64,000 nucleotides of DNA, from assembly GCA_964565945.1 (NCBI GenBank), contig CAZMGY010000012.1, positions 1,966 to 65,965 of the forward strand, given 5' to 3'. This DNA is from an uncultured bacterium (GTDB taxonomy: Bacteria > GCA-001730085). The notes under the pieces were generated by a model. It searched no databases. It was not told the origin of the DNA and saw only the letters and a list, made by a program, of their open reading frames with translations. Positions 14,312 through 62,900 of this stretch are shown piece after piece. The position numbers and the translations under genes were made by a program. Each line of letters starts with the position of its first letter. Position 1 is the stretch's first letter.

Positions 14312-14380
14312 AAAATACTTTTCAAATTTTAGAGTCTTTAGGCTATGATGAACGACATAGTCACATGAAGGATCGAAAAA

Positions 14381-35847: not shown

Positions 35848-35877
35848 TTGACTTTTTTGGAGGACTTGAGCTATAAT
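35848..35877 (+). promoter_or_regulatory. sigma70-like promoter for the giant gene (-35 TTGACT, 18-nt spacer, -10 TATAAT)
   Basis: TTGACT at 35848-35853 and TATAAT at 35872-35877, about 65 nt upstream of the giant ORF ATG. GGAG RBS at 35931-35934. Confidence 0.5.
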
Positions 35878-38900: not shown

Positions 38901-41900
38901 GGCAACAGTTCTACGGTTGAAGGTGTTCGTACTGATGTTCATCGTTTCAATATGGCTTATGATTTGCAAGATCGAGCTTTGGGTTACACCGAAGAGATTT
39001 ATTCTCAAGGTGAATTTAATGTGGTACAGATGAAGCAAATGGTGTATGACTTTGCCCAACGTTTGTCGGGTTATGAGCGTTATGTTTTTGGTGAAACTGG
39101 TCAACAGGTGTCTTGGGAACGTCAAAGTGATATGGTCTATGATAACCTAGACAACGTCTTATCCTACAATGCTCATCGAGTGAGTGGTGGACAAGAGTCT
39201 GTTGATATTCGATGGGAGGCCGTTGTTTTTGATGCCCAAGGTCGTGTCATAGAAGGATCTCCCTACAATGAAGATGGTCGTATTTTAGGTTTTCGCGAAA
39301 CGGGTGTTGATGTGGCGACACAGCGGCGTTACGAAGTTGTTTCTAGCGGCTATGAGTATTCTGTGGTACCTGAAAAAATGAACCGTGCTGTGCTCTCTTA
39401 CAACACCCAACGCAATGAATACGACTCTCAAGGGACTTTGATGGAAACCGAAAATGTGATTTGGTCCGCTAAGGTTAATGAAAAGAATCAGTCCTATGTG
39501 AATGGACAAGTGGTTGGTTATATCGAAGAGTCAACCAATAGCGTGGATGGCAAGCATAAGACAGATGTTCAGAATAGTTATGATGAACGTGGTAATCGTG
39601 TGGGCGTGGATACATCGATCCATTTTTATACTTTTATGGGAGCAAAAAACCGAGTTGAAAAAAGCGTTTGGGAAGGTGATTACGACGAAGATGGTCTCTT
39701 GGTAAATTCACGTCAGTCCTCGACGGTTAACGGTGTTGCTGTTGATACGATTTCTTATAGTGGGGAATCTTTGGAGCAATATGTGATGGCTTTGGAACAA
39801 GGCCTGTACACGATTGATTTGCGCTATCTTCTGAATGATATTAGTGGCGATGGAAGTGTTGATGCGGTTGACGTGGCTGTTTTTACCCAAAAATCCTATC
39901 AAGAGTTTTTGCAAGCTGTGCTCAATGATACGTTAACTCTTTCTGCCTTAGAGCAGGCGGTTAACCTTTATATTAGCGATGATGCTTTACATAAGAGCAG
40001 TTTGGTGGACATGATTCAATTGATGAAGCGGGGCGAGGGTGACCAAATGTCTCAAACAGAGATGATCCAGGATATTTTGAAATTTTTGATCAAAGATAGT
40101 AATGGCGATGGTCAAATTGATGCGGTGGATGTACGTTTTATGACTGAACCCGCTTTAAGCATGTTATTAAATGACACTTTAGCTCAATCTAAGTCTGTAG
40201 GAGATTTGGCGCAAGATTTTCTTAAGCTTTACCTGACTGATCGTAATGGAGATCAGAGGATTACTTCCGATGATTTGCAAAATGATGACCAAATTCGAAC
40301 CACGATCAACACTGTCCTGAAAGATCGCTGGACGGAGAGTGTGCGCGAAAATATTTCTTACAAAGAATTGAGCTTTCGTCGCGTGAGAGATGGTCAAGTG
40401 GTTGTTGAAAAGGTTCGTATTGGAAATCCGGTCACCTATCGAGAAATCACACGTCGTGCTGAGTCTCCACAGCTTTGGCAAGTGAGTGATGTGAGCGACA
40501 TCAGTTTGGACGGTGATGGGACAATGTTGAATTATACATCGATGATTCAGAACATCGAAACAATTGACGACAAAAGTTTGCTTAATTTTAGCTGGGGAAA
40601 AGTGAGTGCCAATATTGATCAATACGCCGATCCTGAGGGTGTTCGAACTTGGGAACTTCGTCGATACAAAACCCTCCAAAGAAATGCTCGTGGTTTTGTG
40701 ACACGATACAGTGAACGACGGACGGAGCCACAAACAGATCCTCAAAAGGTACAAAGCTTTGAGGCAACGCCTCTTGTGATTGATATCCACTGGTCGGGAA
40801 CGTATCGAAATGGTCAGATGTTTACTTTTAACGAATCTAAGAGACGTCGTGGGGAGGTGTTTGTTAAAAATCACTATCAAGGCAAAGATTTATTGCAGAT
40901 GATGGAGTCTTTAGTGGAACAAAAAAGCTACAATGTTTATTTTGATTTGGTTAAATCAGATGGACAAGCTGGAGTCGATGCGAAGATTACTCAAGAAGAT
41001 CTGGACTATTTAAGGAAACATTTGCTTCGAGACCCTAACTATATTATTGAGTGGGTTGAAAGCGATTCGTTAGACGTTTTTTCGAGAGATGAGCGTGTTT
41101 ATACCTTATATAACACCTTAGGTCAGGTGACTGGTTTTCAAACCCGCAGTTTCAATTCGGCGTCGCCTCGCAAAGAAACCATTTTGACACGTTCCAATAT
41201 TATGACAAACGATTTGGGTCTCGAAATGTCCTTTAACGAACATGTTCAAAAAAAAGGCGAGGGAAGTCAATTTTGGATTGATAGCAGTGAAGCCAATTTG
41301 CCAACTGAGTGGGCTACCCTGACTCTTGATGAAAAACGTCAGCTTTTACGGGGAGAAACCATGGTTCTCAATGGGCGCAATGTTTCTTTGGTCAAGATAG
41401 GGACATCGCATATTTATAAAGATATCTATACGTTTCAGGCCAACACTGTTTATGATTACGCTGGTCGAGTGAAGGGTTTCACGCGATCTGATCGTGAAAT
41501 GGGCCAGAATCAACAAGGCTGGCGTGTGTTAGATGTGTTTAATGTTACCGAGCGTCGAGATATGGCTTATGATAAAGCTGGTCGCTTAAGCACTTTTACC
41601 GAAACTCGCCGTTTGGGGCAGGCTCCAGATGTGATTGAAACCATTGAACGACTCAGCACGGAGTATAACGACGCAGGTTATGTGGATGCTTTTGAGCAGG
41701 TTGAATCTCGCAAAGGAGAGCAACAGGAAACACGGGTTCCTTTCGGGGCCTTGCCTGCTTTTTTGAAAAAAAATGCCCTTTTAACGCCGGCGCAGATTGC
41801 AGCTATTTATAGTGGTCAGCGCGTAGATATTTCTGAAGTTGTTAATGAGAATCGCGACTTGTTTGCTGATATGGATGGCTTAGAGCAAGTGGGCGACAGT

Positions 41901-44900
41901 TACTACATTAAGTTAGACACGGTAACGTCTCAGTCGGAAGTGAACACGCTTAATCGGAGAACGCGTGAAAATATTACTTATAACGCTCTTGGTTTCGAAA
42001 AGAGCTTTAAGGAGCTTTCTGTTGATGAGTTGGGGGTTCACAGATTAACGCTGCAATTTGATATTCGTCAAAATGGACTAGGACAAGTTGTGTCGTTTGA
42101 TCAGAGCGTACGTCGCTATTTGCCAGAGGCTCGTGAAGATATTAGCGATACGTTTGTGGTTTTACCACAAGAGATTTCTGAGTCTGAGTGGAAGGACTTG
42201 GCTTTGGCCAAGAAGTTGGCATTTTTGCGCGGAGATCAATTGGTGCGGGTAGTGCAAGGATCTACTATTCGTTATTTAACCCAAGAAGAATTTTCGGAGT
42301 TTTCCGAAGAGAATGAGCCCAAACAGTATGAAGCGCGGCCTTTGAGAGTTCAACTAATTCAAGAAAGCTTGTTAGAAGACTATGCGCGTTCTTATTTTGA
42401 GAGTCAAGATATGGCCATGTGGAGCTACTTGTCTCAAGAAGGTGGTGCCATGATTCGTCATCGGGATGTTCAAGAGGTTGCTTTGGATGAACTAACATTC
42501 TTATCGCGACGCAAAGCTACTTACAACGACTTTGATCAGATGGTTACCTATGTTGATGAGTCTTGGAATGCTTCGACACCAGGCCTTAAGCAAGTGTCGA
42601 TCCGGACATCCACCGAATATGACAGTGTTGGTAATATTGTTGGATTTCGTGTCGAAGATATCTCTCATGGAGAACTGTCGGTTCGAAAGTTTGATTTAAA
42701 TCGTTTAGAAGTTATCGATGGGCAAGGTGAAATTGCTGTTTTCGATATGGCGGGAATTGGTGGTTTTGAGCGCTTAATGCCCGAAGAGCAAATGAAGTTG
42801 CGTTCGGGAAAAAGTATTATGATTGACGATCAAGAAGTTCGCTTGGCCTTCAAAACAGTGATGCAAACCTTTGAAACATCGCGCGTCACTGAGCGCAAAA
42901 ATATGCGTTATAACTTTTTGGGTCAATTGACAGACTATACCGATATAACGATTGAGAGTACCAGTCCTGATCTTAGCCTGGAAACGACAGTTTCAGGGGT
43001 TCTTTACAATGCCTTAGGGCAGCAAATTCGTTTGGTTCAGTCCCAAAAACGAGAAGGAACAACCCAGAATGAAGTAAGTTATCAAGGTGAAGCTCTGATT
43101 GAAAAGTTGCATGCGTTGGCGGGCTTATCCGAAAAAGGTGAGCTTAAGTCACAATTTGCTCAGTGGTCTCTTTTTGATTTAAATGGTGATGGAGTGATTG
43201 ATACACAAGATATTGATCTTGTTGAACCTGACACTCTTGTGAGTTATTTGCAAATCGTTGAATTGAAGGATGTTCAAACGCAATTGCGCGATATGATCAC
43301 CTATACAACTTTGGGGCAATCGAAGGGGTTTCGCCAAATCAGTATTAATAGCACCGAACCACATGTGCGCGAAGTTTTGGTGCGGCATCACACCGCTTAT
43401 AATCTTGCTGGTTTTGAGCTAAGTTATCAAGAAACGGTGACACGCACAGGTCAAATTGCTCAAGACATGACTTCGACTTTTGTTATGCCTAATGATTGGT
43501 CCGAAGATCAATGGCAACAGCTTTGGCAAAAGGGTGGAACTTTTGATCAGATGACGGAACAGCAACAAAGAGTTTTGTTTACTGGTGGAGCTGTTGTCTT
43601 GGGCGATCAGACATACCAGTTTGAACTCTACACACAAGCTCAAAAGGGTGAAAAACCTCATATGGAAGTTCTTACGTCGTCTCAGAATTCGCACTATCGG
43701 ATGATTGCCGAGGTTGTGGCCGAATATGGTAAAGCTGGTGCTTGGTCCTCTCAAGTCGAAGGCTATGTGCGGACTTTGTTAGAGCAAATTTTGCAAAATC
43801 GCTCGGAAAGTGACGTGATTAACCCTGCCGATGTTCAGGCTGTGGTGAATCGCTTCTTAGAAGAGTTGGAAGGGACTTTGGTTGGCGATGAAAATCAAAG
43901 CCAAAAACATGGAGAAATGGGGCAAAATGATTCCACGGAAGTTCAAAGTCAGCACTTTAAAATTTTAAGATCTTTATTGCTTGGTCCAGAGGATGGGGTG
44001 AACGGCTTTGTTCTGGATCTTGTTGATCAGGTGATGAATCAAGTGGGTGCGGTAACAGAGCGTTCTTTGCGTACCATAACCAAAAAGATTGTTTTTGAAC
44101 GCAACGAAATGGAGCAGCGTTCGCGTGAAGATGCGACCTATAACGCTTTTGGACAGTTGATGAGCTATGTGGACAATGTCTACGAGCCTCTGCTCAACCA
44201 AAAAGTGACAACCCAACGTTTGTTAACGCAGTTTGATCGTGCGGGACGTATTTTGGGATATCAAGATCATGTGGTGCGCAGTGGCTTAGCCTTGCAAAAT
44301 GATCAAATTGATTACAGCCGTGTTGAACGTCTTGGTAGTGGCGAACGTTCTTGGGATGATTTGACGTTTATAGAAGTTAAAGCCCTTTATCGCGGTGAAG
44401 CTGTTTTGATGAATGGGGTTCTGATGACGTTGGATGACTTGCGTATTGACAAAGTGATTCGTTTGTACGAGGTTGAAGATCATGTGCGTCAGAATATGGT
44501 ATACGATCAAAACAACCAATTGCGTTCGTTTGCGGAGCAAAGATTTAATCATAATAATCAACGTTTAAGCACCCAACAAAGAAGTGGAATGCTCTATAAC
44601 TCGTTGGGTCAAGTTACGGAGTATATCGATAATACTTTGGATGAAGGAACTGTCGAGCTTGAGGATGGTTCTTTTATGGATCTTTCGCAGAGTTCGCGCG
44701 TTCATCGTAGCAATATTCAATATGTTGATAATCGAATTTATGCTTACACCGATGTGTCGAGATCAAGTCAGTCTGAAGAAACGCAGGTGAGTGTTCGCGA
44801 GTCGACACACTACAACGCATTGGGGCAGGTGATGGCTTATCGTAATAATAATCATCGTTTCTTGTTTGAAGGTCGTCAAACGATTTTAAGTGTTCGCAAT

Positions 44901-47900
44901 GTGAATGAGCGAACAGGGATCGTCTACAACGCTCTTGGACAAAATATGGCTTACAGTGATTATCAGTGGAATTCATCGGAGCCAGCTAATGCCTCTTGGT
45001 CTTATCGTAGCGATGTACAATATGATGGCTTAGGCCGTTTGAATGCGTACACCGATCGGACGAGAACCTTGCAATCGCCAGATATGAGAGAAACTTTGGT
45101 GATGAACAATATTCAGCACAACGCTTTGGGTCTTCAACAAAGTTATACAGAGTTACGTATTCAAGAAAGCCTGCTAGAGGATTCTCAAGGGGAACCCTTA
45201 TATCAAAGGTTACAAAAGAATAATTACCAAGATATAACTTATGATGCTTTGGGGCGTCGTCAAACCTATCTGCGTTCAGCCGTGACTTCCGATGCTCCCG
45301 ATATGGTGATTAACACGACTTGGACCGCTTTGGCCTACGATGAAAAGTTGGGCGTAGTGAGTGTCTATCGTGATCAAAGTGAACGCATTGGAACAGATGG
45401 AACACGTGTTATGTTGACAACGATTCATGATCAAGTCAAATTTGATCGCGCGGGTCGTGAAATGAGTTATCGAGAGCAAGTTACGGATTCATCGCGACCA
45501 GGTGTTAAGCAAAAACGTTTGAGGATTGATACTGGCTACGATACTTTTGGGCGTGTGGCTCAATACGAAGAATCGAATGCTCAATACAATAACAACCTTC
45601 TCCTTAACTATGTTCTAACGAATCGTAATAACACCTATAACACGATGAGTCAAGTTGAGTCCTATGTGGAGAAGCGGACCACAAATGGCTTAGAGAGCTT
45701 AGCTGAACGTTATGAGATGGCTTATAACTCATTTGGTCAGCTGGAGTCCTACGAAGAGGTAACGGAAAGTCCTAGCACAAGGCTGAGAATGTCGGCTTGG
45801 GGTTTAACGTATGATAGTTTGGGTCGATCTTTGACTCAAAATACACGTTCTGTTGATAGTGAAGGTAATGTCAATATTACCTATAACTGGGGGATGCGCT
45901 ATGATACTTCGGGTCGCACGATCTTTCGTAATGAAGATCGTATTTTGAATGGTGTTCGCTCCCTAGGTATTCAGTGGTATGCTGGTCTGATTCAAGGAAG
46001 CGGTGAGGACGAAAATGAGCCTAAGTTTGATCAAGATGGTGAGCCTTTTTTTATAAAGAAGCCTTCGTTTGACGAATTTGGTAATATTTTGTCGACGACA
46101 GAAATTCGTGTGGATGATCAAGGTCATATCAATGTGAACGTGAGTGAGTATAGCTATGACGCTTATAGCCATCGTGACTCGGTCCAAAGTTTATCTTACA
46201 GCTATACGTCAAATGACTTAAACGATTTAGGAACGATTCAAGTAAGTGAAGTGACAACAACTTCTTGGGATGTTACGGATGGGTATCTAACCCTTACTTT
46301 TGATGTTCTCAATCAGAATGGAGATATTGTTGGCACACAAACGGTTGAAGGGGGTTACGTTTTAGGTTCCGAGCAAATGCAACGTCGTTATTTGATCACA
46401 GATGATGGTCAACGGGTGCTTAAGCAAGTCGGTAACGATGGTGAAGAAGATGTTTACTTCGACATTACCTATTCGAGACAGTCGTTTGCTTACAATGATG
46501 TGGCTGATCAAACCTTTTTGGGATCGGAGTCTTTTAAGTACAGTTTGTCTCAGGAAGCTACAGGAGCGGATTTAACCGACTTTGTTTATGAAAGCAGTCG
46601 GTATCGCCAAACCATGTATGGTGATAACAATCGACGAATCCAAGAGGTGACGTTGCAAAATGAGCGTGGAGTTTACGGATGGGACGTTTTGCGCGATGAG
46701 TTGGGTATAGATCATGAAGTTTGGTCCGAAGTGGGTGATCAACTCGTGAATTTGCGAAAATATTTGGTAACACAGCAAAATGAAATTAAAGTCGGTGTTC
46801 CTGGTGCTCAAGAACAAGCTAATGCTCGCATAGCTGAGGTGAACTCTAGTATAACGACTCTGTTGCGTCAAGCAGGTGTATCTTCTGAAATGATTAGGAC
46901 CTCGTTGAATCAAGTCTTCGGATCACCTCCAAGCTCTGTTTCGCTTGATGGTGTGATTGAGAACTTATTGGGTGTTCAGATTTTAAGTTCTTCAACCTTA
47001 TCTGTTGTCGATACCGATGGTTACGATCAAGTTTCGGGACGTCCTTTACTCGAAAGGGAGCGCCAGTATACGCATCGGAGTGGGTTTGATGTTCGGAGTG
47101 ATAATTCTGATTGGAATTATCAAAAATTCCGTTCGGGAAACGTTAAAATTGATCAGATGCTTGCGGCTAAAGACTCTTTTATCTTGGTTCAAGATGAGAC
47201 GCGTAATTATTCTTACGACGAAAACGGCGTTCGTACAGCGATTGTGACCGAAGATGGTTTGAGTGGTTTTCGAGAAGAAAGTTTCAATATGGAATACCGT
47301 TTTGATGGACTGGTGAAAAGTCGCGTTATGTTGCGGACAGCTCCAGGAGCTGGGGGTAAAATTCAAACCTCGGCTTATAACCAGATCAGTTACACCTATC
47401 ATCCTAACGGTCGGATCGCTCAAACGCGCGTTCGCCTTTATGAAAGTTATGATGGAGTGCGTGGTGGAGGATTGAGGGGGCTGTTGCGAGAGGAAGTGAT
47501 TGATGATGTGTATGACTTTGAACGCAATGTTCTTGTTCAAAAAGTCTCCACACAGTGGGGCTTTTCTGAAACGGATGGGTCACGTTTGTTGGTTAATCGT
47601 CAGGTGGATGATTCGACATATAGCTTGTTCAATCGTGTGAACGGTTTAATTCGATCAATGTACAAGAGCGAAGATGGTGCCGAAAATTCAGTGATTCTTG
47701 ATAATCAAGAAATTTTCTCCAATTACTACTATAGCAGTCATGGTCAGGTGCTATCTCAAAGCGTGCGCAAACTTGATTACAGTGTGGTGGATGTTGAAGA
47801 GGCTGGCCTTGCCGATGAAATTAACGGCTTGAGTGTGACTGACAATGCCGAAACCATGCAAGAAAAAATTATCGATACTTATGTTGCTTGGTGGAAGAGA

Positions 47901-50900
47901 AGGTATGGTCTCGAAAAAGTTGATGGATTGTTGGAGCATGTGATTGATGTTTTTATGGATCTTTTGTTGGCACCCACCAATATTGCTCGTACGGCTAAAG
48001 ATATTTTGGAAGTAGCTATTTACGTTCTTGGAGAAGCCTTTAAATCTTCGAAAGAATATTTAAGAAATGCGGGTTACAGTGTTAACGAAAAATATATGAG
48101 TTATCTTGTTGGTGACGAATTGAGTCATCGCATGATGAGCTATCGTAAAGATGGTCGGGTTAGTGGATCGCAAGATCTGACTTACGATATCGATGGGGTT
48201 GTCAAAGAAAAAAGAACCCTTTCTTATGTTTATGAACAAGAGCTCAATGAAACATTCAAAACCAATCGTATTGCAGCCCAGAATCAACGCAATTATATGT
48301 GGGATGAAGAAGGAAAGGTTTGGAGTTTAGATAGCGGTGCTGATGTTCAAATCACTTATGATCAGTTTAATCGGGTGTCGAGCCGATTGGTGACATCGAT
48401 TGATAAGAATGGACATTATGCTGAAAGTACGGAATATCTTTTTGAGTATGATCACTTGAATCGTGTAACTCGTGAAACACAGCGTCTTTTAGACCCAAGT
48501 GCGTCGCGTAGCGAAACGAGTTCCTTAAGTCGGAGCCGTAAAGCGATTGGAACACTTAAATCGCTGAGCGAAGAAATTAGAGATTATAGGTACGACGCTA
48601 TGGGACAACAGCGTTCGGTGAGTGTGCGTCAAAATGATCTAGGTGTTGTACGTGCTGAAAATCCTTCTGAAATCCGCACATCTTATAATACCGTTTTGAC
48701 ACGGACCAAGAATGGGGCACGCGAAGAGTTCTTTGATGACGAAGGAAATTTGTATCAAGTGGTCACGCATCAATTTACCTTTGATGTGAACGATAATCTC
48801 ATTTTGGATGAAAAGATGACCCTTCGTTACAATGAGCAGGGGCAGGAGATTTCTCGCCAAATTCAGGAGATTCGCAATCAAAAATTTGATAAAAATGGTC
48901 GAGTACTGCATCGCAATACTCAAACCTTTGACATTCTGGATGGTCAACGTGTGAGTGTCGGTCGTGAAGAAGTTCAAACCATTTATCAGGGTATGAACTA
49001 TCGTATTCAAGAAGAAGTGATTACACAGTATGGTTACAATCGTATGCAGCAAGGTACCGAAGTTCCAGGTGTGACGACGCATGTGGTGTATGCCTACGAT
49101 GCACAAAACAGAATGTCGAAGCGTACCACTGTTTCTTATAGTGATCCTAATGCGCAGTTGATAGTTGTTCCATCGGCAAGTGCATTAGATGTTCGCAATG
49201 GGGATGAAGGGCAAACGGTTGAAGAACAATTTATTTATGATCTTTCTCGTCGTCCGATTCAAACTATCAATAAAGTTTATGAGGGTGGTGAACTTATTAG
49301 TGAGAATAGAAGGGTATCGACCTATCTAACCGCCGATCCTAACGATATGCGTGTTGATAAACAAATTGTTGTACAATTGGATGGTGCGGGAGAAATTCGT
49401 TCGATTGTTGTGAACAGCAATTACAGCTATACAGAAGAAAATCGTTATCAGCGTGGTAGTTCAGGTGCTGTTGAGTTTGGAGATTCTGGTAGTATTGAAA
49501 ACATTGGGCCCATTCAGCGTATTTTATTGAACACGGGTTATGATACGGTTTCTTTCACTGATTCGGTGGATGGGATTAGTTTTGATGCATCTGGATTCAT
49601 GTTAATGCCTTCTAAGGAGACTTGGGGGAGTTTACTCAATGCAAAAAATAAAGTGACGAAAAAAAGAACCACATCGTATGATATGTTAGACAGAGAGCTT
49701 CACTCGGAAGTTAAGTCTTACTTGCAAGATTCTTTGATTGGCCGGGAAACGGTATCTTACTATTACAGTGAGCAACGTATGGGTGATGATCGTGCTGTGA
49801 TTGAGGATCAGCGCTTTTATAGCCAAGATGATACCTTTGTGCGTCATATAGTGCAGCAAAATCGTTATGATGCATTGGGACGTATTAGCCAAAAAGATGA
49901 GTTCTTTTTAGATCCAAGCACTTCTTCAGGTGGTTTGATTGAGCAAGGGGTTGTTCTAGATAGTTTTATTCCAAAAACGGGAAGTCTTCAATTTCATCGC
50001 CAGATACTCAATATGGACTACGATGGCGGCTTTGATCGTATTATTGAGCAGGATGAAATTGTTTCGGCTAACTACATTGACCAAAACAATACTGGTGATG
50101 GGCGCAATCAGATCACGCACAGTATCTTTGCCTACAACAATAAAGGGCAAATTATTTCGAGCGAAAAAACACGTTATCAAGCCAACACGGTTCAACATAA
50201 CTTAGAGGATTTTCCTCGTGTTATTGAACGTGAAACAGGTCATCAGTATAACCAGCATGGGGAGGTGGTGTCGTTCCAGACATTGCTGGATACCTATTAT
50301 CTTGAAACTTTGGATAGTGATCAAGTGGTTTTGCGCGATCGTCAAGGAAGTGATGTGACCATTTTTTATCATAAACCAGGTCAAGTATCTCGTCGCGTAA
50401 GAAAGAACTTTGATGTGACAGCTATTAATGATCTCTTAAGCTCTGCCATAAATATTAATGTTGTTCAACTTAGATCTGGCGAATTGATTGACACCGAAGT
50501 AGAGCAAAACACTTACGATGTTCAAAATCGTTTGAAAGAGGTTGACCGAACCTTTACTTTTGCTGGAAAAGAGGACGCCTATCGGATTTATCGTCGTTCG
50601 TTGACGTATGATTCCTTGCAAGATAGACCGAAGCAAGAGATTGGGCGCAATTGGAACGAGCTTGATGATCGGGTGACGCTTTCAGTAACGGATAATATTT
50701 TTCAGGGAGAATTTATTTCACAAGTTTTCACGCGCAGTAGCGAAATTGATGTGGCCAATGATGCTGATCGTAACTTTTTATTAAATATGTCGTCGTCGGC
50801 GGGTGTTTCGGCACGATTGAATTTAAGTTTAGAGAGTAAAAGAACTGTGACTAATCGAGTGCAAAATATACACTCATGGGATTCTCAGGGGCGTGCGGTG

Positions 50901-53900
50901 CGTTATTCGATGAAGCAGTATGATGAGCGTAATCCTCGACGTTCCACGTTTATTGAAAGAAAGTTTACCTTGTTTAACAACACTGATGGTGGTGAAGATT
51001 TTTATGATGAAACCGTGAGAGAAGAAATTGATGGAGAAGTTCTTTCGACACGTGAGCGTGAATATCAAGCGTTTTGGAGAGATTCTCGTGGACGTACGCG
51101 TGGTTATATTTTATCGGAAAAAGTTCGCGATAAGGAGGGTTTGTTACAAACAAAGCAAGTGATCACTCGTTTGGATACCAGATTTGATGTTTACGATAAT
51201 GAAGTGAAGGCTTTCCAGGAAGAGCAAGAGTATGTGAATATTAACTTGGCCGATGATGCGAATGTTGTTTGGTCTATGCGAAGCCATGTTGGAAGAAATG
51301 TTGTGAGCGACTATTTTTCTGAGGGAGAGAATAAGGGCCGTTTATCAAATGAAACGATTACTTTGTACAAGTATGACGTGGCTCAATCGGCAACGAATGG
51401 TTCTCCAGTATTGTTGGATCGTGAAGTTTTGCAGCGAGAGGTTTTGGGCTATCAAAGAGCATTGGCGAACTCTGAACGATTGACATCGCGAAGATACGAT
51501 GCGACGGGTCACTTGGTGCAACATCGTATATCGACGAGTAACCGAACTTTCGACGAGCAAGATCGCATGACGCTCAACGATACAGTCACTATTGATAAGC
51601 TTCGCGAAACGCGTACCATTGAAAATATGAATGTGGTGTCTTTTGATGACTTTGACAACGTGGTGGCTTTTTTACAAACACGTCGTGTCGAAGACTTAAA
51701 TGATTCCGAGATTCTTCTCGAAGATCAAGTGGTTGAGCGTAGAAATTCAGAGTTTGAAGGTAATTTGTTGATTGATAGTTACGAAATCGTTAACAATAAG
51801 CTCAAAAATGATGTACGCCATGTGATTCGGCGCAATCGCACCTATAAATTTGGTCAAGAGGCATCTTCGAATACCTATAACTTTACGGTGAACGTTGAGG
51901 ATCCTGTTTTAAGGTCGGTTGCCGTGTCGCCTGAGCAGCAGATTAATCAAATTTTAAGAAAATTTGGTTTAAGAGATGTGACATCTTTGGATGTTAAACG
52001 ACAAGATGGTCCAGAGATTTTTCAAGATACCTATTTGAAAACCCTGTTTGCACGATCTGACAGTGAAGATTTGGTGGGTAGCAGTTTTACTCGATCCGAC
52101 ACGATTTTTAGTGATCGTGGAGAAAGCTATGGTTATATCAATTATCTTTGGAACAAGGTGGGTGATTACCGCTTGGTTAAAGGGCCAGATGGTGTTTATG
52201 ACTATACTTTTAGCCAAGCTTTGAATCAATTCACTTACGATATTTTCTTTGCAGGTCAGATTGATTTGGGTGCTCAAGGTGCTTCCACTGCTCTTAGTTT
52301 GGAGGATCATTTTAAATTGGAAAACAAGGATGATGTTAGCGTCTACTTATCCGATTTAGAAACTTGGTTAAAAACACCAGGGGACAACCATATTATTTAT
52401 GATGGTCGCGATCAGACCACGGGAGAAAATCGTGAGTTTACACGCATTTCATTAAGACAGATTGAATCATTCGGCAATAAAGGGTCCTTTGATTTTTCAC
52501 CATTTATGTCCTTTTCTCCTGGTGACCCATTCACAGGACTCAAAGATGAGGGGCTCGCCGCTCAAGTCCAAGATATTTCTTTGCACTTTTTTAATGATCC
52601 GAATGTTCATGATGGCGTGGAATATGCTCATCGCATAGTGCGAGGCGAAAAACGTGAGCTTGCTCTAAACCGATGGGTGGTTGGGGGAAAGGATCGTGAT
52701 AAATTTAACTTTACCCTCGTTCGTCGTACCGATACTGATTTTTATGGAGATCAAGTGGGCGAAGATTTCTCTAACCAAGGTCGTTATGGACAGGTGAAAA
52801 ATTATACCGAATATTCGATTTCTCCATCGGGTGAAGAGAGTAAAGTTGTTCGCAATAATATTCATTATTATGTGCCTGAAACGCTTCAGCTGGGGCAAAG
52901 TAAAGTCAATGTCGGTTTAGAACGTTTTTATAACGAGACAACGTATCGTCGTAGTGATAATTTTCATGCAGCGCATATTCGCAATCACGGTGTGACAGGA
53001 CAAATTCACCATTATTCGGAATCCTCCTCACACGCAGGTGATTGGTCGGATAGCCGTTTGGAAGAGAGTGGTCGTATTCAGTATTGGGAAGAAGATGGTG
53101 AAATCATTATTCACATGGATGATTTTATCACACGCTTTTCGGAGAGTTACTTTGTTGCTGACTTTGATAAAGAAGATCGTAAAATTCGTTTAAAGTACAA
53201 AAAAGGACAGGTCAAAAGTTTCCGTGAATACACAAGTAGTGGCGAAGATGCGGGAACTGAATTTTCATCGGCGAATAATCTTTACGACCCTGAAGGCAAT
53301 GCCGTATTTACCGAACGAACTGTGGTGCGTAAACGTGGACGAGGCATTCCCGATGATAACTTTGATTTTGAAAAAACATTCAATGAATACAATTCTTATG
53401 GGTATTTGTTGCGATCACATGTTTATTATAATTTTGATTTTGCTAAAGTGACCACCTATTACAATATGAGAACCAATTCGAATGATGTGGGAACACTTAG
53501 CCATGGTGCACGTCGTCATGTGGCCTATATGGACCAAGAAGATGGACAAATGTATGTGCAGAAATATGATCTTACTGGTGAAAATGCTGCTGATAAGGGT
53601 AAAGGATTTGAAGCCTTTTTAAGAAATATCTACATGATGATCGAAGAAACATTGACCAATGGTGGTGTATTTATTGTCGATAAAATATTCAATAGTTTCT
53701 TAGGGTTTTTTGGTACTGATCCAGTGTTAGAAGATGAACTTCAAATTATGCGTGATAATGCGCATCGGGTCGCAATGTTTCGCCAGGTTTTCGAAGAAGA
53801 TACGAAAGCTTTCACTAAAAGCTTAGAAAATCTTTTAGGCTCTGAAGGAGCGATTATCGCTTCGATAGTTCTTCATGGAGTTTTATTTGTTCTCGCTGTG

Positions 53901-56900
53901 GCTGCTATGGTGTCTACAGGAGGGGCTGCATTACCTCTAATTTTTGCTGCTTTCGCTTTTGGAGCGGCGTATTCTTTGATCCAAACCACTATTTATTACG
54001 ACAAGTATCGTCAGGCGGATACTAAAGCCGAAAAAGAAAAATATTTAAAGTTAGCTTCAAAGTATGCGGCTTATGCGATTACGATTCCTTTTGAGATCGT
54101 TTTCTTCTTCACTGGTTTGCTGGGTTTGGCCGCCACGGCTTTGCGCAGTTGGGATGACTTGTGGGATTCGATTAAGGGCTTTTCGGTGATGTACCTTGGC
54201 TTTATGGAAGGACTTCTTGGTTTTCCCGAGGGTTGGATCTATGACAACATGGTGTCTTTTATGGTGGATTGGGTGGATGAGTTTGGCGGAGATCTTGGAG
54301 GTTCTTTGGCTGTCTTACCATTGTTACTGATTATGGTGTTTGTTGCTGCGATTATTGCAGGTCCAATTGCTATGATTTTTGTGTTGCCATTGCTGTTTGC
54401 TTGGGCTGATGTATCTTTCCTCTACACCGATGAACAGAAACAGAACGTCGAAGTTAAAATCGAGGAACGTCAAAACGCTCTTTTCACTGAGCAGCATCGA
54501 CATATCACACGAACGATTGCAGCTCTGATAGGTATCCTTATGTTGCGTGCTTGGAGTCAAAGTAAAGCGCAAATGAAGCATAAGGTAAAATTGGCGGATA
54601 AACAAATCAAGGCTTTTAATAAACTCAAGCAGGTTGAAAAGCAAAATCAGAAAAACCTAAAAATGACTCGAGAGCAAGTGGTTGAGTCCAATGCCCGTAT
54701 TCGCATGATGGAAGCCAAAATGTGGAAAGAGATTAAAACGAGTACAGATTTGAATCAAGCGAAGCTTTTTTGGCACAAAGTTGGTTCACTTGTATCGTTG
54801 CCAATACGAGTCTTGCATTTTATTGTGACAATCCCTTTTATGGTGTACGGTCTTTTGAATGGTTTAATGATGCGCTCGCTCTCCAACATACGTCAAAAAC
54901 CAATTAGCTACTTGAAGGGTAAGGCGGTTGACGCGGCTAATCGTTCACGACGATCACAAGAGGTGACAAAAACTAATTTGACACAGAAACAGGAAGCCTC
55001 TCGTGAATCGTTCACCTTGTCGCAACGTTTGATTACCAGTATTAATCAGATTCGTAGGGGATGGGATCAGGTTAAGGATGTGATATTCCGTTCTCGCAAG
55101 GAGCGCATTTTGCGTCCTCTTGATACAAAGTCAGGTGTTGTAGGCTTCTCTTCGGGGCGTGGCATTATGGATTATCAGAGAATGTACAAAGGTCGTCCAG
55201 AGGTTAGCTCGGGGCTTGCTTTGAGCGGAGTTAAGCAAAACGAGAGTGGTAAGTTTGAAGAGAAAACACCTCAAGAATTGATTAATACTCTTAAACAGTC
55301 CGAAAGACATTTGGCTGAGAGTGTCCGCAAATGGGAGACCCAAACCTATAAAGCTTACTTGCAATTAAAGTCGGATGGCGTTCAGTCTCAAAGCAAAAAA
55401 GGCGAAAAGACGGTGAGTGATGCAAGTGCTGTGATTCAAGGTGAGCGCTTCTTGTGGGATAACGTGTTGCCAAGCTACGAAGTTCAAAAAATGGATTTTA
55501 GCAAAATGGGCTTTAAAAAGTTTGTGTCGCGTGCTTGGTGGGGACGTTTTTCGACCAAAGCTTACTGGCGTGATGTCTGGGAGGGTATGAAGTGGGATAA
55601 GCGTGACCCGAATGATCCGGATCAGCCTGGTACCCTTGCCAAGTCAGGGCGATTTTTCTCTCGTGCGTCTTTTGCCTTAAAACGAGCTATTATGAAAGAT
55701 CAAGCTAAGGGTGGGTCTTGGGCTGAAAGTGTTCGTTACAATGCTTTGCTCAAGCAGCAGATGGGAACTAAGAAAGCTAAGGTTTTCAAAGAACGCCTCG
55801 AAGAATCTCCGCAACAATATATGCGAACTCTTGCTCAGTGGATGGCTGAAGGTCAGTTGCGTGAAGGGAATGTGAATAGCCGTGGAGGGCAAGTGAGACA
55901 TAAATTATTTATGGAGCATGCGCTTAAAGATATTATCGCTTTTCAAAACGGATCAAATCTTTCCGCCAAGGCTCTTGACGGGGCTTTTTGGAAGACTTTG
56001 CATGAGGAAAGCACACAAAGTCTTCAGGGAATGAACAAATTTTCTCGTTTAGAACTACAAGTGATTGAAGCTTATTGGAATGTGCTAAGTAAGTATCAGG
56101 GGGCGAACTCTTTAAGTGGGATTGATAAACTTGAAATACGTAAAGCCTTAGAGCACGAATTGGTTGAAAGTTTTGTGAATCGGATGGACGGTGTAGCTGT
56201 GATGTTGCGTTATTCCGAAGTGCGTAACGAACAAGGTGAACTGACCAGCTATGATCTGGAGCGGGCAGAAGCCTTTATGCAAAAAGGTTTCTTTCAGTTC
56301 AGTGAGTTCTTTTTGCCGAAGTTACGAGCGTTTAAAAATGTCTATGGTGGTTATGACGGCCGCGAAGAGAGTGGCAATATGGTTCTTAACCGCAAAGGCG
56401 ACAGTCCAGATCACTTTAACGATATGTACAAAGCGCTTAAAGAGAATCAATCGGATGCTTTCTTGCGAGAAGTTGCCTTTCAGTTTCAGCGTATGCCAGA
56501 AAGTGGCCTGTTTTCTCGCAAATTAAAGGTTGAAACCAAGACTTTGAATAGCATGGCAGAAAACTTAGGGAGAAACAACTTTGAGAGTTTAACAACGGCT
56601 CAGCAAACGGCTGTTTTGATTCGTATTCTTGAGAGACGGGGTCTTTTGGAAAATATGAAGAAAATGCTGGGTGAAAAACAGATTGAGTTGGTTATTCTTG
56701 AACATTTAACAGATGCTAAGTCGATTCAGGCCACTGTGATGGAACTTTACAAGGAAGCGACCAAGCCTCCAACAGATCCAAAAGCACCTAAGCCAACGGT
56801 ACCTTCGGATGTTAATCAGCTGCGTCAAGAGTTTGGTCAAAGCAACGCTAACTCTAAAGTGGTTCAAGAGATGAATAGCTTGTTCGAAATTACGGAACCT

Positions 56901-59900
56901 TTTAAGCGTGCCCAAAAATGGACTGAGCATAGCGAATCTTATGTTTATAATCAAGCACGGACCAACGCTATGAAGCTGTTTGCCGAAGAGTCGGCTCGTC
57001 ATATGGACAGCTTGCCAGAACGATTTGCTTTAACTAACGATAGTTATACAATGACGGAGATTAAGGATGCGATGGTGAAGGCTATTGAACCTGTACTGGC
57101 CAAATCAATTACGCATAAGGTCGACCGTCAAAAAGCGGCGCGAAAGTTGGCTCATGAGATTCTCGAGTCAGGGGCGACAGCTGGCCTGATTAAAGTCGAA
57201 AAGGCTCTTTATTTGGAAACGGTCTCTTTGTTTAAATTGCCTCAAAATATTGGCAAAGTGATTGAACAAGCTGACTTGCCAGCGCCTGTTAAAGAAGCTT
57301 TACTTCGCGAAGTTGTGTTGGATCAGATTGTTAGTGCTCTTCGTCTGGAACGGGTTAGTTTAGGAAACAGTGGGGAAGGGATGATTGAGGTTTTGAGCAA
57401 AAACTCCGAAGGACGTTCGGAACTTCTCTTTAATTATGCCAAATTAATTGAGCTAATTCGTAAAGAAGGTGGCAAGCTGGATGCCAGCAAAGAGGTAGAG
57501 TTGTTGCGTATTTTGGAAGCCACTCTCTATGAAGTGACTGGCTACAGTAAAAATAACGCCTATCGCGAAGGAATAAATTACGAAGTCAAGTGGTCGAAAT
57601 TCAATGAGAAATATGTGGGCAAAGGCGAGCAACAAGGTATGATCAATATGGAAAAACTGGTTCATGATTTGGTCGAAGTTTACAAAAAACGTTTTGCTGG
57701 AGAGTTGAGTGAGGCGGCCGTGGAAACCTTAGGGCATGCCACGGGCATGTTTGTGACCTTATCACGTCAAGCCGATACTTTTGCTAGACATTGGGAAAAA
57801 GCGGAAAAAGTTTCCTTCAGTTTTCTGCCGATTCAGCTTGAGGCGGTGTTGGCGATGTTGTCGGGGGGTAACTTGGCTCTTCAAATTCCAACAGGTTTTG
57901 GTAAAACCAACGTGATCACGCCATTCTTTGCCTTAACTTTTTTAGGTGCGGGTGAGTACTTCCCTAATAGCAAAAAGTTGATTCTGGAAGTACCCGAAGC
58001 GGGTAAGGTTGGCGAAATGGATAACGCCCAGTTCAAAATGATTCTCGAAAAAGAATTCGGAGAGGGTGCGCGTGAGCGTTTAACCGCTCAGATGCTTGAT
58101 GCTCAAGTGACATCGAATCCTTTGGAAATGCAACGCTTAATGAAAGCCAGAGTTGTTTTTACCGCGACCGATTGCCTCAATTTTTTGGACTTGTCGGCGC
58201 GGAATCCGCACAAAGCTAAAGATTCCAATGCGATCGCTTTGCGTGATGCTTTAGTTAAAGGTACCACGAGGATTGTGGATGAGATTCATAAATTTGTAAC
58301 CCAGCAAAAGAGCTTTGTGACGGGAACGGATGCTGGTGAAGTGGCTGTGGGTGTGCGCGATGCTAAATTAGCACATTACATTACGGAACAAGCTTTGAAC
58401 TTGATTCAGGAAAAACTAGGCAAGGGCGAAGCTATCTATAATTCTCAAGGAGGTTTTGCCTCAGGTGCAGAGAAGGTTTTACTTGGGAAACGAATGGGGC
58501 AGGGTGTTTTACGCTTTAATCCTGAACGTGTTGGAAATACGGATGTGGCTTTTAGTGCTGCTTTTAAAGTGGAGTTATTGCGGAGGTTGCAAACCAGTCG
58601 ATTGGATGGGTTTAACTTGAGCAGTCAGGCCGCAAAGCTTATGGATCGTTTTGGTGGCCGTGGTGAAAAAGAATTAGCGAATCGCTTGAAGACTCTTTAC
58701 AAGGTGGGTGAACACGATGTTTATTCGGCACCTCAGTTTGTTTTCCATTATTTGGATCATTTGGCGCAGTCCTTTTCGGGACGGACGCGTGTGAAGGAGT
58801 TGCAAAACCGTTATGGTCCCAACCAGGCTTATGAGGTTTTATTGGATTCGAAAAGCAAAATGATTGAACGTGATGAGCATGGTGTGCCTCGGGTTGTTCC
58901 GATGAGTGGTGGGGAAAAACAAGTTAGCCAGAAATACTCGAATCGTGAACATGTTCTATCGATCTATTATTCAACGCTGGCTCAGCATATGTTTCAAGAT
59001 GGTCGTTTTACGGGCAGTTGGAAGAAATCTTTGATTCAGGATGCTAGTCGCATTAAATTACAGCCTGATTCCTATCGCTTGAAGTTAAGCGATCACTTAG
59101 AGATGGCCACACGCGCTGGTCGTGTGCTGGGTTTTTCTGGATCGGTGGTAGGTTCTCAGCAGGCGTTTGAGTTTATGATGGGGATGAAAGTTTGGACCTC
59201 CCAAAGAGCCGAATATAAATTGGCTGGTGATACCGTCGGTAAGTACGTAATTGATCCGATGATGCGTTTGCATCAGAACGAAGTGAGTCAAATTGATAGC
59301 CACGGTATGCGAGAAAAGTTTGAAAAAGCCTTAACCGAAGGTGCCACTGTAACCCCACAGTATCGTCAAATGATTGAGAAACGCTTGAAAGAGCGCTTAC
59401 GTTTCGAAAAAGAAAGTCGAATGGAATTAGCTCAAATCGAAGGACTACTTAAGGAAGTTCCTAAGATTAAAGATGCTTTGTGGCTTCGTGAAAAAACATC
59501 AAGCTCAGAAGGCAAAGAGGCGATTCGTCCTGGTAGCACGAATCCTTTAACCCAACGTTTATTTAATGAGGCGCTGAGACATCAAAAAATCTATGATTTA
59601 TCTGCCAAGCAGGTTAATGAAGGCTATTTGAAGGATCGTACCATCAATCATGACAAGTTGTCGCCGCAGGATCGTTCGGCAAACTATGAAGTGATCAAAA
59701 ATGAAATTGTGGCCGAAGCTAGCTATTTAAGAGCTAAGCATGAGCAAGCTTTGCGTCATCAAGCCGAAATGGAAAAAGGTACCCCTCTTACTAAGCGAGA
59801 GCTTGAAACACTTCGCGAAAAAGTGATGAGCATCGAAGAGACGCGCCAGTTGGCATCGCGTTTGATTGAGCTCAAAACTCAAGGGGATGTGTTAGGGCGT

Positions 59901-62900
59901 CATATTGTCAAGCAGATAATTGGTGACGGGTATGTGGCTCTTAAGGAAAAAGGTATTACGGCCGAAAAACTGATGGAGAGGCTTGAAATCCAAGTCCAGA
60001 ACATGATTACAAAGACGCTGAAAAAGATCCCTACCGACTCTTCGATAGAGGGTCATCACGCTCTCGTGGTGGATTATACGGTTTCAACCCGAATGGAAAA
60101 TCTACATACTCTGCTCGAGGAAGCGGCTAAGGCCAACAAAGATGTGATTGTTAAGGATTTGACTGGAGAATGGCGTTTGTTCTTGCATAAAGAAAAACAA
60201 AATTGGGTTAATCGTGAAACAGGTCAGATTGAATTTTCACGTACTTTGCGCTTCGATCAAGATATGGCCAAGTCGTTGCTTGATAAAGGTAAAACAGAGG
60301 TTCCTGCCGAATTTGTGGCCGAGATACAAGCCCGTGGTCTAAAACTAACCCAGGGTAGAAAAGGTGAAATGCTATTGTACCGCAACGGTAGCGAACCTGG
60401 TCAGTTGAATGTAGATATTGGAGCTGTTTATTTATTCCCCGCGGGTGCGACGGGAACCAACTTGGAGATGAAAGCGAGTGGAAAATTTCGCCAAAAAATC
60501 ATTAAGATTTTTGATCGTCAGATGCTCGAGAAAGAGTTTCAACAAGGTTTGGGTCGTGATCGCGGAGTGCGTGTTGAACCTGTGGACGGTGTGGGTTTTA
60601 AATTGCCATCGGAGCGTCACGTTTACTTTATGTCGCCCGAAGGTAAATACCAGTATGAAGGGGTGAAGGGGCAGGTGAAAACGGGTAATATGTTGCACAG
60701 CAATGGAACGGTTGATTTGCATCAGCTGTTTCATATGCTTCGCACCAACCAAGAAGTGAATACTAAAGTACAAAACTTTCGTCAGGCCAGTGAAGCTTTG
60801 TATGAACCGCATAATCGGGTGGTTTCAGAAGTGTTGCGCTTAATTCGTCCTCATGAAGAACAATTGTTCCATGTGAAAAAATTGCTTAAAGATCACTTGA
60901 AAAACATTCAGAACGAAAAGCGCGAAGCCTTTCGTGTTTCCCTTTTGGAGACTAAGAGTACAACTCTCGTTTTGCAAGATATGGCGCGTAAAGCTAACAA
61001 TCAAATGATTAAGTTGCTTGATGCTCTCGAAGGGAAGGGCCTAAAAATGAATTTTGCCAATCTTATGGGACAGGGAGAAGTGTTGTCAGCGATTAATCGC
61101 ATGCCAGCCAACCGCACCTTCAACCTTCTTCGCAGTGATGTGAAGGAGCTTTTGCAAACGCATCGAGATGGTTTAAAAGGCGACTTGCGTTTTGCTGATA
61201 TTAGTCGCGCTGTACCTGAAGGTGGTTTGATGAATGCGAAAACAATGGCTGATGTGATTAATGTGATTAGCAGTTTGGGTCGCGATGCTTTATTGGCTAA
61301 AACTAGCCAACGGACGTATTCGGGTGAAATTTCGCGTCAAACAGTTTCGGCCAAATCGATGTCTGGTTTGGCTGAAAATGCTTACAAACGATTGCGTTCT
61401 GATGGTGCTATTAGTCAGAAACAATGGCAACTGGCTCAAAATCGAGCCAAAACCAAGATGATGAAGTTACATCGCTATAGCAAAGTTCGCAAACGTTTGC
61501 GTTTGGACGAAGCGAACCGTAGCGATGGTGTTAAGTCCAATAGTTTCTTCAAACGGATGTGGAATTATCGTTCAAACCAAGAGAAACGTAAGCCTGTCTA
61601 TGCTCAGTGGAATGTTGAGACGCGTGATGAGCAGTTTGAAAAAGTGATGAAGTCTGACGCTCTCTTGCGCAGTGAGTACATGGTGGAAACCATGAATGCA
61701 TTGTTTGCCCAACCCGACGTCGCAATTGAAAAACGTTATCGTGAAGCTCTCGATAAAGTCGTTAAAACTTTTGGTGCCAAAAGTTGGCGCCCCGCAACTC
61801 CTAAGGTTTTGGATGCAGATTCCTTGTATAAACTCTACACTGAATACCATTTTTACAATAAAACGGCGTTGCTGATGCACGTGAAAGAGTTTGATTGGTT
61901 GCGTGAACTTTTTTTTGGAGAACTTAATGTGGATAACGATACCGTTGTATTAGATGATGGCGTATCGGTTTTTGCTCACAAGGATATCACGGCGCAGTTA
62001 GAAAAAATGGTCACAGACGAGCTTAGTCCGTTGCACCAAGCGATCCAAGCGAAACATGCTTCGGATAATGCTGTTAGGGTTCAGCAAGTGACGCTTAATT
62101 CGCGTTGGACTGGCGAACAAAGCGATCAACTGATTCATGTCTCTGTCCAGTTTTCTGATGAATTGACGGGGGATAGTTACCAAGAGGATGTGACCTTTGT
62201 TTATCGCAATTACAAAAGGTTCCTGTGGCAGCTCCCAAATCATCGGCAACTTGTCACAGTGGCCGATTATTTGGGAGCTGCCACAGGAACCTTTAATGAA
62301 AACAAGGTGTTGAAGCTGGGTGAGCTTGCTGGACGTGAAGTACTTCGTAAGATGAATACTCGCATACGTACTGAACTAGAAGCAGAACAATCTTTTAAAA
62401 TATTCATTCAAAAAGCTTATCAAGATGGTTTGGATTTGGCCAAAGAGGTTGGCTTGCAGGATGAGTTGCTGCAGCGATTCTTGGAAGAATATCAAAAGGG
62501 CCTTGCTGGGACAGCACCCAATGCTTCATTAAGAGCTCGTTTGACCCAGTTGGGTACTTCTGAACACAGGGGGGCTAACTTTGTGCGCCACTTTATAGTG
62601 CTGGATCAATTGGTGCAAAAGATTGAGAAAGCTGGTGTTTTCAAAAAAGGTTCTTTGGATCGTTCCAAATTACGTCAGAAGATACTGAGTGCTCAGGTGA
62701 GCGTTCTAAAGCATGCTCGAAGCGACGCAGATGATAAACAACCAAAAGCTACGGATAAGGTTGAAGAAACCTTATCCCTAAGGCAGGCGGTGCTTAAACT
62801 TCAGCAAGAGCCAGGCAATGCTCGTTTGGAGGTCGCTATTAACGAAAGGCTCAAATTACTTGTGGAAAGCGAGCTGAAGGTTCAAACGCGTCAACGAGCT

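Follow-up and report, generated by a model that had tools for sequence, protein, structure and literature searches.

How is a bacterial protein chain of about 10,000 residues exported, anchored and powered? Giant proteins are among the least understood of bacterial gene products, and this question has been raised by two recent preprints only. It is posed again by a giant gene that occupies the last 28 kb of a stretch of 64,000 nucleotides (nt) from an uncultured bacterium (contig CAZMGY010000012.1, positions 1,966 to 65,965; hereafter, the window). Between the YD/Rhs-type repeats in the N-terminal half of the product and its huge C-terminal region lies a block of strongly hydrophobic helices. 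Is this block a membrane domain, and on which sides of the membrane do the two halves lie? The block proved to be real, non-random and conserved, and it is probably a polytopic domain of the inner membrane, serving to anchor an exported YD fibre and to connect this fibre with a cytoplasmic region that holds a putative ATPase.

35943-63998, + strand: giant open reading frame (ORF), 9,352 codons inside the window, running off its end; full length 9,735 amino acids (aa)

The gene is a single open frame (frame 3, nt 35910-63998) that continues past the end of the window. Residues (p) are counted from nt 35910, so that the ATG at 35943 is p12. In an independent assembly (Logan contig SRR19984991_32918, 88.9 kb) a 9,735-aa product is called from the same start, hence the window lacks the final 383 residues of the protein; the 9,352 aa given in an earlier note on this DNA is the number of codons in the window, not the full length. 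The ORF is unbroken over 29 kb in independent assemblies, and the locus is present in 12-20 contigs from several sequencing runs and in one 139.8-kb NCBI contig.

Hydrophobic block and its conservation

The protein was profiled with three hydrophobicity scales with hand-typed values: Kyte-Doolittle (KD; 19-residue windows, threshold >1.6), a Hessa-type scale (summed free energy, dG, <3), and Wimley-White octanol (WW; sums < -6). KD windows above the threshold fall at p5975-6028 (54 aa, maximum 2.59), p6053-6078 (26 aa, 1.93), p6125-6173 (49 aa, 2.89), and p6291-6320 (30 aa, 1.94); elsewhere in the 9,363 translated residues there are none, except for the N-terminal signal-like segment at p27-51. 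The resulting block of 346 residues (nt 53832-54872) holds every strong hydrophobic window bar this weak N-terminal segment. All 45 of the 45 Hessa-type windows with dG <3 lie inside p5960-6330, and WW sums below -6 occur solely in segments of the block. Thus, 78 of 80 hydrophobic windows are found within a single block of 346 aa; the fullest block of this length in each of 500 composition-preserving shuffles contained 5.7 windows on average and 30 at most, which excludes a chance cluster. The earlier note had singled out 53847-54875 (p5980-6322) as the only part of the protein with comparable hydrophobicity, and the agreement of the three scales bears this out. Its four stretches are also seen, with lengths of 26-54 rather than 25-45 aa, and are joined by two weaker conserved segments (H0 and H6 below).

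An exhaustive HMMER scan of 1.84 billion cluster representatives with p5701-6900 as the query yielded one match, P0011 (E 2.3e-76, 33% identity), and the best-scoring stretch of this match, p5950-6319, is the hydrophobic block. P0011 is a fragment of 1,047 aa from NCBI assembly GCA_018814215.1, where its contig is 3.9 kb long; the BLASTP alignment covers about 900 residues (p5500-6340; 31% identity, E 3e-120). YD-repeat-like sequence continues upstream of it in another frame, ending in a stop (JAHJAH010000092.1, 1-780), and P0011 is therefore taken as a piece of another giant gene; the change of frame is either a frameshift or assembly error, or the mark of a genuinely split gene. Nothing was found for the block in Pfam, NCBIfam, PADLOC, PHROGs, or by PDB sequence searches, and P0011 has no Pfam match. 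Word-indexed homologue searches with the block, the ATPase region (see below) and its SF2 domain 1 alone gave no matches, nor did pattern scans of GTDB genomes, JGI metagenomes and IMG/VR; PDB sequence searches with both protein halves, the ATPase region, a spliced construct and a profile of the P0011 alignment gave chance-level matches only. As judged from these searches, the block defines a new predicted membrane-domain family with two detectable members among 1.84 billion representative proteins. Its parts are as follows:

53661-53717, + strand: H0, weak candidate first span (p5918-5936), GGVFIVDKIFNSFLGFFGT; KD 1.12; lies before the start given in the earlier note
53847-53999, + strand: H1-H2 helical hairpin (p5980-6002, p6006-6030); tight TGG turn, conserved AxGAAxS small-residue motif in H2
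54000-54065, + strand: basic loop DKYRQADTKAEKEKYLKLASKY between H2 and H3; seven Lys and Arg (K+R), 59% identical to P0011, predicted cytoplasmic
54066-54143, + strand: H3 (p6053-6078); invariant Glu, predicted to be membrane-embedded (PFEIVFFFTGL / TLEFVLFFSGL), 38% identity
54180-54248, + strand: h3b, short amphipathic/hydrophobic segment (LGFxE); the invariant PEGWIYDN comes next, within an acidic loop that lacks Lys and Arg
54294-54425, + strand: H4-H5 hairpin (p6129-6172); conserved Pro-Leu, Asp near the end (ADVSF / IDVNF)
54480-54554, + strand: invariant LFTEQH, then H6 (p6199-6215; 17 aa, moderately hydrophobic), 41% identity
54555-54764, + strand: Lys/Arg-rich variable linker before H7; 18 K+R in 70 aa, 13% identity, predicted cytoplasmic
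54765-54872, + strand: H7 (p6286-6321), hydrophobic segment of 36 aa, rich in aromatic residues and with a basic flank on either side; WW -10.1 (-10.7 in P0011)

All hydrophobic segments are retained in the P0011 alignment, as are the uncharged hydrophobic runs of 46-56 aa. The segment of P0011 aligned to H0, LYSILGFLLSGGPLSLFGL, is clearly hydrophobic (KD 1.57, WW -7.9). H1 keeps only its hydrophobicity (9% identity), with 32% in H2 and 48% in H5; H4-H5 is the most hydrophobic stretch of the protein (KD 2.89, dG -2.5, WW -11.4). The loops are the best-conserved parts, the H2-H3 loop with its ADTxAEKE motif (59%) being followed by the PEGWIYDN loop (58%). Invariant in both homologues are the Glu of H3, LGFxE...GxPEGWIYDN, the Asp near the end of H5, LFTEQH, and the AxGAAxS of H2, a small-residue motif of the kind that packs helices. 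Because of this pattern of conserved loops, invariant residues and an H1 that retains hydrophobicity alone, the block fits a folded membrane domain with specific interfaces, not a mere greasy anchor. The conserved acidic residues predicted within the membrane (Glu in H3, Glu in h3b, Asp at the end of H5) hint, together with the two loops of highest conservation, at a specific function in addition to anchoring. H7 may be a hairpin or re-entrant element, or a single span.

Distribution of positive charge

K+R are rich in the H2-H3 loop, the H6-H7 linker and the tail after H7, and nearly absent from the H3-H4 loop. For the positive-inside analysis proposed in the earlier note, 24 topology models were enumerated, and K+R were counted on each side for the window protein and for P0011; in both, the counts are strongly one-sided. 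Among the models with an outside N-terminus, the best ones share an odd number of spans and an inside C-terminus. The out/in counts are 5/45 for the window protein and 4/43 for P0011 with spans H0, H1, H2, H3, h3b, H4, H5 and an H7 hairpin; 9/39 and 11/35, respectively, with spans H0 to H6 without h3b; and 16/35 and 13/34 with H1 to H5 alone. This asymmetry, kept in both homologues, speaks for a membrane domain that is inserted co-translationally and stays resident; by itself, the K+R rule gives a slight preference to both flanks being inside.

An outer N-terminus together with an inner C-terminus needs an odd number of spans, reached, e.g., via H0. The features that point to this arrangement lie in the two halves of the protein: the signal-like peptide, the acidic composition of the N-terminal part as opposed to the basic C-terminal part, the calcium (Ca) loops resembling those of dockerins and EF-hands, and the putative C-terminal NTPase.

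N-terminal half

36000-36065, + strand: signal-peptide-like segment MKVMSLLVVEFFIATSMDLAYA, then Q; basic n-region and A-Y-A site, read by eye
36603-50189, + strand: dense YD/Rhs-type array of YDxxGR and YNxxGQ units, broken up by helical inserts and by three loops like those of dockerins and EF-hands
52107-53759, + strand: pre-membrane region (p5400-5950); 24-51% identity per 50 aa with P0011, without known domain

The signal-like segment (p27-51) reaches a KD maximum of 1.68, with a hydrophobic core of 15 aa and an AxA-type site. The motif [YF][DN]xxG[RNQKL] has 36 matches in p1-5950 (1.45 +/- 1.2 in shuffles) and none C-terminal of the hydrophobic block; one segment of the N-terminal part exceeds the Pfam RHS_repeat cut-off (22.8 bits vs 22). 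The earlier note had placed the block immediately after the YD repeats. These are indeed confined to the N-terminal side; the dense units, however, stop near p4750, with a weak unit at p5792, so that some 180-1,200 non-YD residues intervene. The N-terminal part is acidic (Asp and Glu 15.9%, Lys and Arg 11.1%).

Three Ca-loop motifs of the form D.(S/N)GDG.(V/I)D..D(V/I), dockerin/EF-hand-like, are found at 39837-39875, 40095-40133, and 43176-43214; the matches of the giant protein to Pfam Dockerin_1 and EF-hand are all below threshold. A helical insert with the motif W..L....(E/Q)K..(L/F)L.G..V.L.G recurs between YD units (about 37500-44500, p530-2850), e.g., at p1797, p2086, p2286, p2527, and p2812, and p1620-3330 contains internal repeats of about 200-450 aa. 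By analogy, the inserts may correspond to the exterior helices on the beta-helix tubes of the giant proteins of Omnitrophota.

The region of about 550 aa before the block has no Pfam match (52107-53759) and is as well conserved with P0011 as the block itself; common strings are YTEYSIS, GQIH, KGxVxSxRE, and FNEYNxxGYLxRxH.

C-terminal half

54873-63998, + strand: C-terminal region of about 3,400 aa, of which >3,000 are inside the window; net basic, with much Leu, Lys, Glu and Ala, without YD motifs
57873-60566, + strand: putative ATPase core (p7300-8230) of the superfamily 2 (SF2) type; motifs read by eye, Pfam DEAD

The composition switches sharply at the block, and the C-terminal part is basic (Lys and Arg 15.5%, Asp and Glu 13.4%). 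It contains SF2 motif I QIPTGFGKT (57873-57914, p7328), a motif Ib-like string VVFTATDCLNFLDLSARN (58152-58205), motif II VDEIH (58266-58298, p7457), a motif III-like GFSGS (59124-59153) about 280 aa past motif II, and a motif V-like GATGTN with a motif VI-like QQGLGRDRG (60429-60566; VI at p8212). The best PDB match of this region is MDA5 helicase domain 1 (E 0.14), with DDX52 and Hel308 also among the matches. The C-terminal region appears to hold an SF2-type ATPase that falls in no named class. Since an SF2 ATPase needs ATP, the C-terminal half would face a cytoplasm.

Some features, noted by eye alone, resemble SecA: DEIHKFVTQQKSFVTG compared with DEVDSILIDEARTPLIISG, the insert of about 280 aa between motifs II and III, and GFSGS..AFEF compared with GMTGTA..EF. 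The long II-III insert recalls the preprotein-binding domain of SecA, which we note as a lead. Pfam SecA_DEAD (PF07517) was not listed by hmmscan of the giant protein even at E up to 10; with the ATPase region as the query, NCBIfam gave no match, phmmer against PDB gave no SecA, and BLASTP against a hand-typed E. coli SecA sequence was not significant. Given the lack of a SecA_DEAD match and the non-significant BLASTP, membership in the SecA family is not claimed.

Cysteine is avoided to an extreme degree: there is one in the 9,363 translated residues (p7422, nt ~58173), inside VVFTATDCLNF of the motif Ib-like string.

The earlier note had proposed a membrane-integrated block dividing the protein in two. 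Behaviour expected of an integral membrane segment and two contrasting halves, acidic and YD-rich vs basic with SF2 motifs, are both found; for the YD array, an outer position is the more probable one.

Proposed architecture

The best reading of these features is a polytopic inner-membrane anchor and coupling domain with 5-9 predicted spans, the N-terminus outside and the C-terminus inside. The block would be an integral-membrane domain of a previously undescribed family, residing in the cytoplasmic membrane of the producer and built of five strongly hydrophobic conserved helices (H1-H5) and the 36-aa aromatic H7, to which H0, h3b and H6 may add spans. The roughly 5,900 N-terminal residues, with the signal-like peptide, acidic composition and YD/Rhs-type repeats bearing Ca-loop motifs, would be exported and form a cell-surface fibre. 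The 3,400 or so C-terminal residues, basic and apparently helical and including the putative SF2-type ATPase, would stay in the cytoplasm. The block would then be both the anchor and the physical link between a cytoplasmic motor or scaffold and the extracellular YD fibre. We infer N-terminal export, the odd number of spans, and any coupling of the ATPase to the fibre.

A bolder version of this architecture, which we regard as unlikely, would make the block and the SF2 ATPase a self-contained trans-membrane machine of a new family. Its 7-9 helices, with E6062, E6100, D6167 and the loops ADTxAEKE, PEGWIYDN, and LFTEQH, would form an ion- or polypeptide-conducting path that couples the motor in cis to the 5,900-residue YD fibre, either threading the protein's own ectodomain out or transmitting force or a signal; its lineage would lie outside Omnitrophota, and it would be unrelated to SecA and SecY in sequence.

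Alternative explanations

The alternative that survives best, although it is still rather unlikely, is a membrane tether with both flanks in the cytoplasm, i.e., a scaffold or a pre-secretion store similar to the Rhs and Tc cocoons of type VI secretion systems (T6SS). Several observations that weigh against the outside-in architecture speak for it. The top score among the 24 models belongs to six spans with both flanks inside (out/in 2/49 in the window protein, 1/46 in P0011), the highest K+R bias of all; the sole difference from the best model with an outer N-terminus is whether H0 crosses the membrane, and the latter model needs H0, which is marginal in this protein (KD 1.12, with an Asp-Lys pair). 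The signal-like peptide has an unusual Glu within its hydrophobic core. The YD repeats are no proof of export, since YD/Rhs proteins of T6SS and Tc systems fold their shells in the cytoplasm. Proteins with transmembrane (TM) helices only and their bulk in the cytoplasm are also the commonest predicted class among long Omnitrophota proteins (10.64898/2026.06.07.730766). Against both flanks being inside, the protein begins, directly after a good ribosome-binding site, with a basic n-region that is followed by a 15-aa hydrophobic core and a site of the AxA type; the acidic N-terminal part includes Ca loops like those of dockerins and EF-hands, which are typical of proteins outside the cell; the abrupt change in composition at the block is suggestive of two compartments; and H0 is clearly hydrophobic in P0011.

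The preferred architecture, with the N-terminus outside, is further weakened by the quality of the models and matches. A single-sequence AlphaFold model of the block is all-helical with a low predicted local distance difference test (pLDDT) score of 54.7, the basic loop DKYRQADTKAEKEKYLKLASKY being the highest-scoring region of an otherwise poor model; that of the ATPase region is unusable (pLDDT 34.2). The Pfam DEAD (PF00270) matches, at 21.7-25.5 bits (E 1.8e-4 to 1.3e-5), are under the cut-off of 26. The window covers 9,352 of the 9,735 residues, and downstream genes fall outside it.

The second alternative is the one that the earlier note had raised itself, a toxin-type translocation or pore-forming module: the protein would be released with its helices shielded while soluble, and these would insert into a target membrane to deliver the C-terminal cargo. 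The hydrophobic hairpins of 46-56 residues do resemble the insertion hairpins of clostridial and diphtheria-type toxins, arrays of the YD/Rhs kind are characteristic of polymorphic toxins (Zhang et al. 2012, PMC3482391), and the ATPase could also act in the cytoplasm of a target cell. The K+R bias, however, is a signature of Sec/YidC insertion in the producer's membrane, and it is seen in both homologues. The comparison with translocation domains of large toxins that the earlier note had suggested lent no support: Pfam has neither a TcdA/TcdB pore match nor any toxin domain in the protein, and the charge bias fits a resident membrane protein. No DPxGL autoproteolysis motif is present, and the block has too few amphipathic helices to bury at least six apolar ones. 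With about 3,400 residues and a putative ATPase among them, the cargo would be far larger than any translocated cargo known to us. The genes around are housekeeping ones, with no immunity-like gene seen upstream. For these reasons (K+R bias, no Rhs cleavage motif, size and ATPase content of the cargo) such a module is kept as an improbable explanation.

Still less probable is a membrane-embedded processing peptidase or conduit of the kind in which PrsW is fused to RHS filaments, extruding and cleaving the fibre. Polytopic domains fused to RHS repeats have a precedent (PMC3482391), and conserved polar residues lie in or near the membrane (Glu in H3 and h3b, Asp in H5, and the FxxxH-like LFTEQH). 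With the PrsW/CPBP motifs defined, in part after PMC3482391, as EE, FxxxH/E, and HxxxN/D in TM helices, the P0011 alignment shows only one invariant His and no EE pair; Pfam gives no PrsW, CPBP or other intramembrane-protease match even at E up to 1; and PrsW-RHS proteins carry the TM domain N-terminal to the repeats, whereas here it is C-terminal. A PrsW/CPBP peptidase was accordingly rejected, there being neither motifs nor a profile match.

Finally, that there is no membrane domain at all, the block being a core buried within a soluble helical domain, or else a stretch without function, would accord with the low-confidence AlphaFold model and is practically dismissed by the uncharged runs of 46-56 residues with KD up to 2.9 conserved at 31% identity, by the ORF intact over 29 kb in independent assemblies, and by the one-sided K+R counts.

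Genomic context

35848-35877, + strand: sigma-70-type promoter-like site TTGACT-18-TATAAT, 11/12 matches, preceding the giant gene

The ribosome-binding site is AGGAG, 8 nt before the ATG at 35943. The upstream neighbours are ordinary chromosomal genes: mgsA, nadC, coaX, groEL, znuA, purA, accC, pcrA/uvrD, the gene for a type II secretion system (T2SS) ATPase, nqrA-F, moxR-batA-D, and trkAH. A single T2SSE gene lies about 20 kb upstream of the giant gene; otherwise its neighbours are housekeeping genes, not genes for a T2SS or for pili. Nothing resembling an immunity gene was seen in the upstream part of the window; the downstream gene lies outside it. TrkH is at most 53% identical to anything in GTDB, its best matches being scattered among Planctomycetota, Kiritimatiellia, Leptospirales, and others; a related giant gene is absent from all 80 TrkH loci fetched from other genomes.

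All ORFs longer than 300 aa in the window (1-64000) are on the + strand, and the GC skew is positive throughout (+0.05 to +0.27), pointing to a single long coding strand that is co-oriented and G-rich. Pfam matches are lacking for two conserved ORFs, one of 560 aa between nqrF and moxR (22093-23775) and one of 307 aa inside the moxR-bat operon (26157-27080). The sole Rfam match in the window is a single tRNA-Ala(GGC) between pcrA/uvrD and the T2SS ATPase gene (14237-14312).

Comparison with known systems

Teneurins, to whose logic the earlier note had likened the protein, are type II membrane proteins in which one TM helix close to the N-terminus is followed, on its C-terminal side, by the YD shell; they also have EGF, NHL and plug domains and a Tox-GHH end. 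The likeness, which takes in bacterial teneurin-like YD proteins as well, is one of logic and no more: there, as in the architecture proposed here, an ectodomain of YD repeats is connected across the membrane with an intracellular part of some size. Instead of the single N-proximal type II helix, the window protein has a polytopic cluster after the YD array (p5980-6321 of about 9,735), which reverses the order, and the shell plug and Tox-GHH are lacking: no Pfam match to EGF, NHL, FN-plug, or Tox-GHH/ABD was found anywhere in it.

With the Rhs and TcB-TcC toxins the window protein shares YD/Rhs-type repeats and, with their PrsW subgroup, a polytopic membrane domain in the same polypeptide (PMC3482391). 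It differs in that the TM domain is C-terminal to the repeats and is followed by a part of about 3,400 aa with the predicted ATPase rather than by a small encapsulated toxin. Regular-expression scans of the window protein for the aspartyl autoprotease motif PxxxxDPxGL that ends the Rhs core (patterns DPxG[LW], YYDP, NPxxxxDP) found nothing, and it has no Pfam match to PAAR, VgrG, or PrsW. An Rhs toxin with a cleaved C-terminal domain was rejected, given the size of the C-terminal part and the lack of DPxGL.

The delivery domain of TcdA/TcdB and the T domain of diphtheria toxin likewise form a cluster of hydrophobic helical hairpins midway in a large multidomain protein; the window protein differs from the former in the lack of a TcdA_TcdB_pore match, in its resident-type K+R bias, which a toxin delivery domain should not have, and in the far larger supposed cargo. 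FtsK and SpoIIIE consist of a polytopic membrane domain, a long linker and a cytoplasmic motor ATPase, FtsK being without a giant ectodomain. In them, as in our proposal, the cytoplasmic NTPase motor is held at a membrane domain by a linker that is long, variable and basic; the putative ATPase of the window protein is of the SF2 rather than RecA/FtsK-like type, and there is no sequence similarity.

The likeness in layout extends furthest to the giant proteins of Omnitrophota, for which the combination of a signal peptide, a TM cluster and a cytoplasmic SecA_DEAD-like domain has been described. In those of the 'Dockerin-type', most of the N-terminal part is free of TM helices; these proteins form Rhs-like tubes of antiparallel beta-helix that bear helices on the outside (West-Roberts et al., bioRxiv 10.1101/2023.11.21.568195); the class with a signal peptide and TM helices makes up 39% of long Omnitrophota proteins, and a cluster of architectures with SecA_DEAD has been reported (10.64898/2026.06.07.730766). 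The window protein has the same general layout, a long TM-free N-terminal part followed by a TM cluster near the C-terminal third. The further likenesses are the Rhs-like beta structure suggested by the repeats, the dockerin-like motifs, an SF2/DEAD-type ATPase predicted beyond the cluster, and the features of the signal peptide plus TM class. The window protein differs in being shorter (9,735 aa) and in having no Pfam SecA_DEAD, only a generic DEAD just under the cut-off, with dockerin matches below threshold. Its sole relative found is P0011; the TrkH of its host has no Omnitrophota genome among the best 80 matches; and its gene has housekeeping neighbours, not T2SS or pilus genes, apart from the one T2SSE gene.

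While the general architecture has thus already been described in Omnitrophota giants, this variant and its membrane-domain family are new. The case is a compact one, with a single TM cluster instead of dozens and a clean order of acidic YD fibre, membrane domain and basic SF2 region, and it suggests that YD/Rhs repeats can be built into resident membrane proteins, beyond cleaved toxins. This makes the protein a tractable model for asking whether such giants span the membrane and whether a cytoplasmic ATPase serves their extracellular part.

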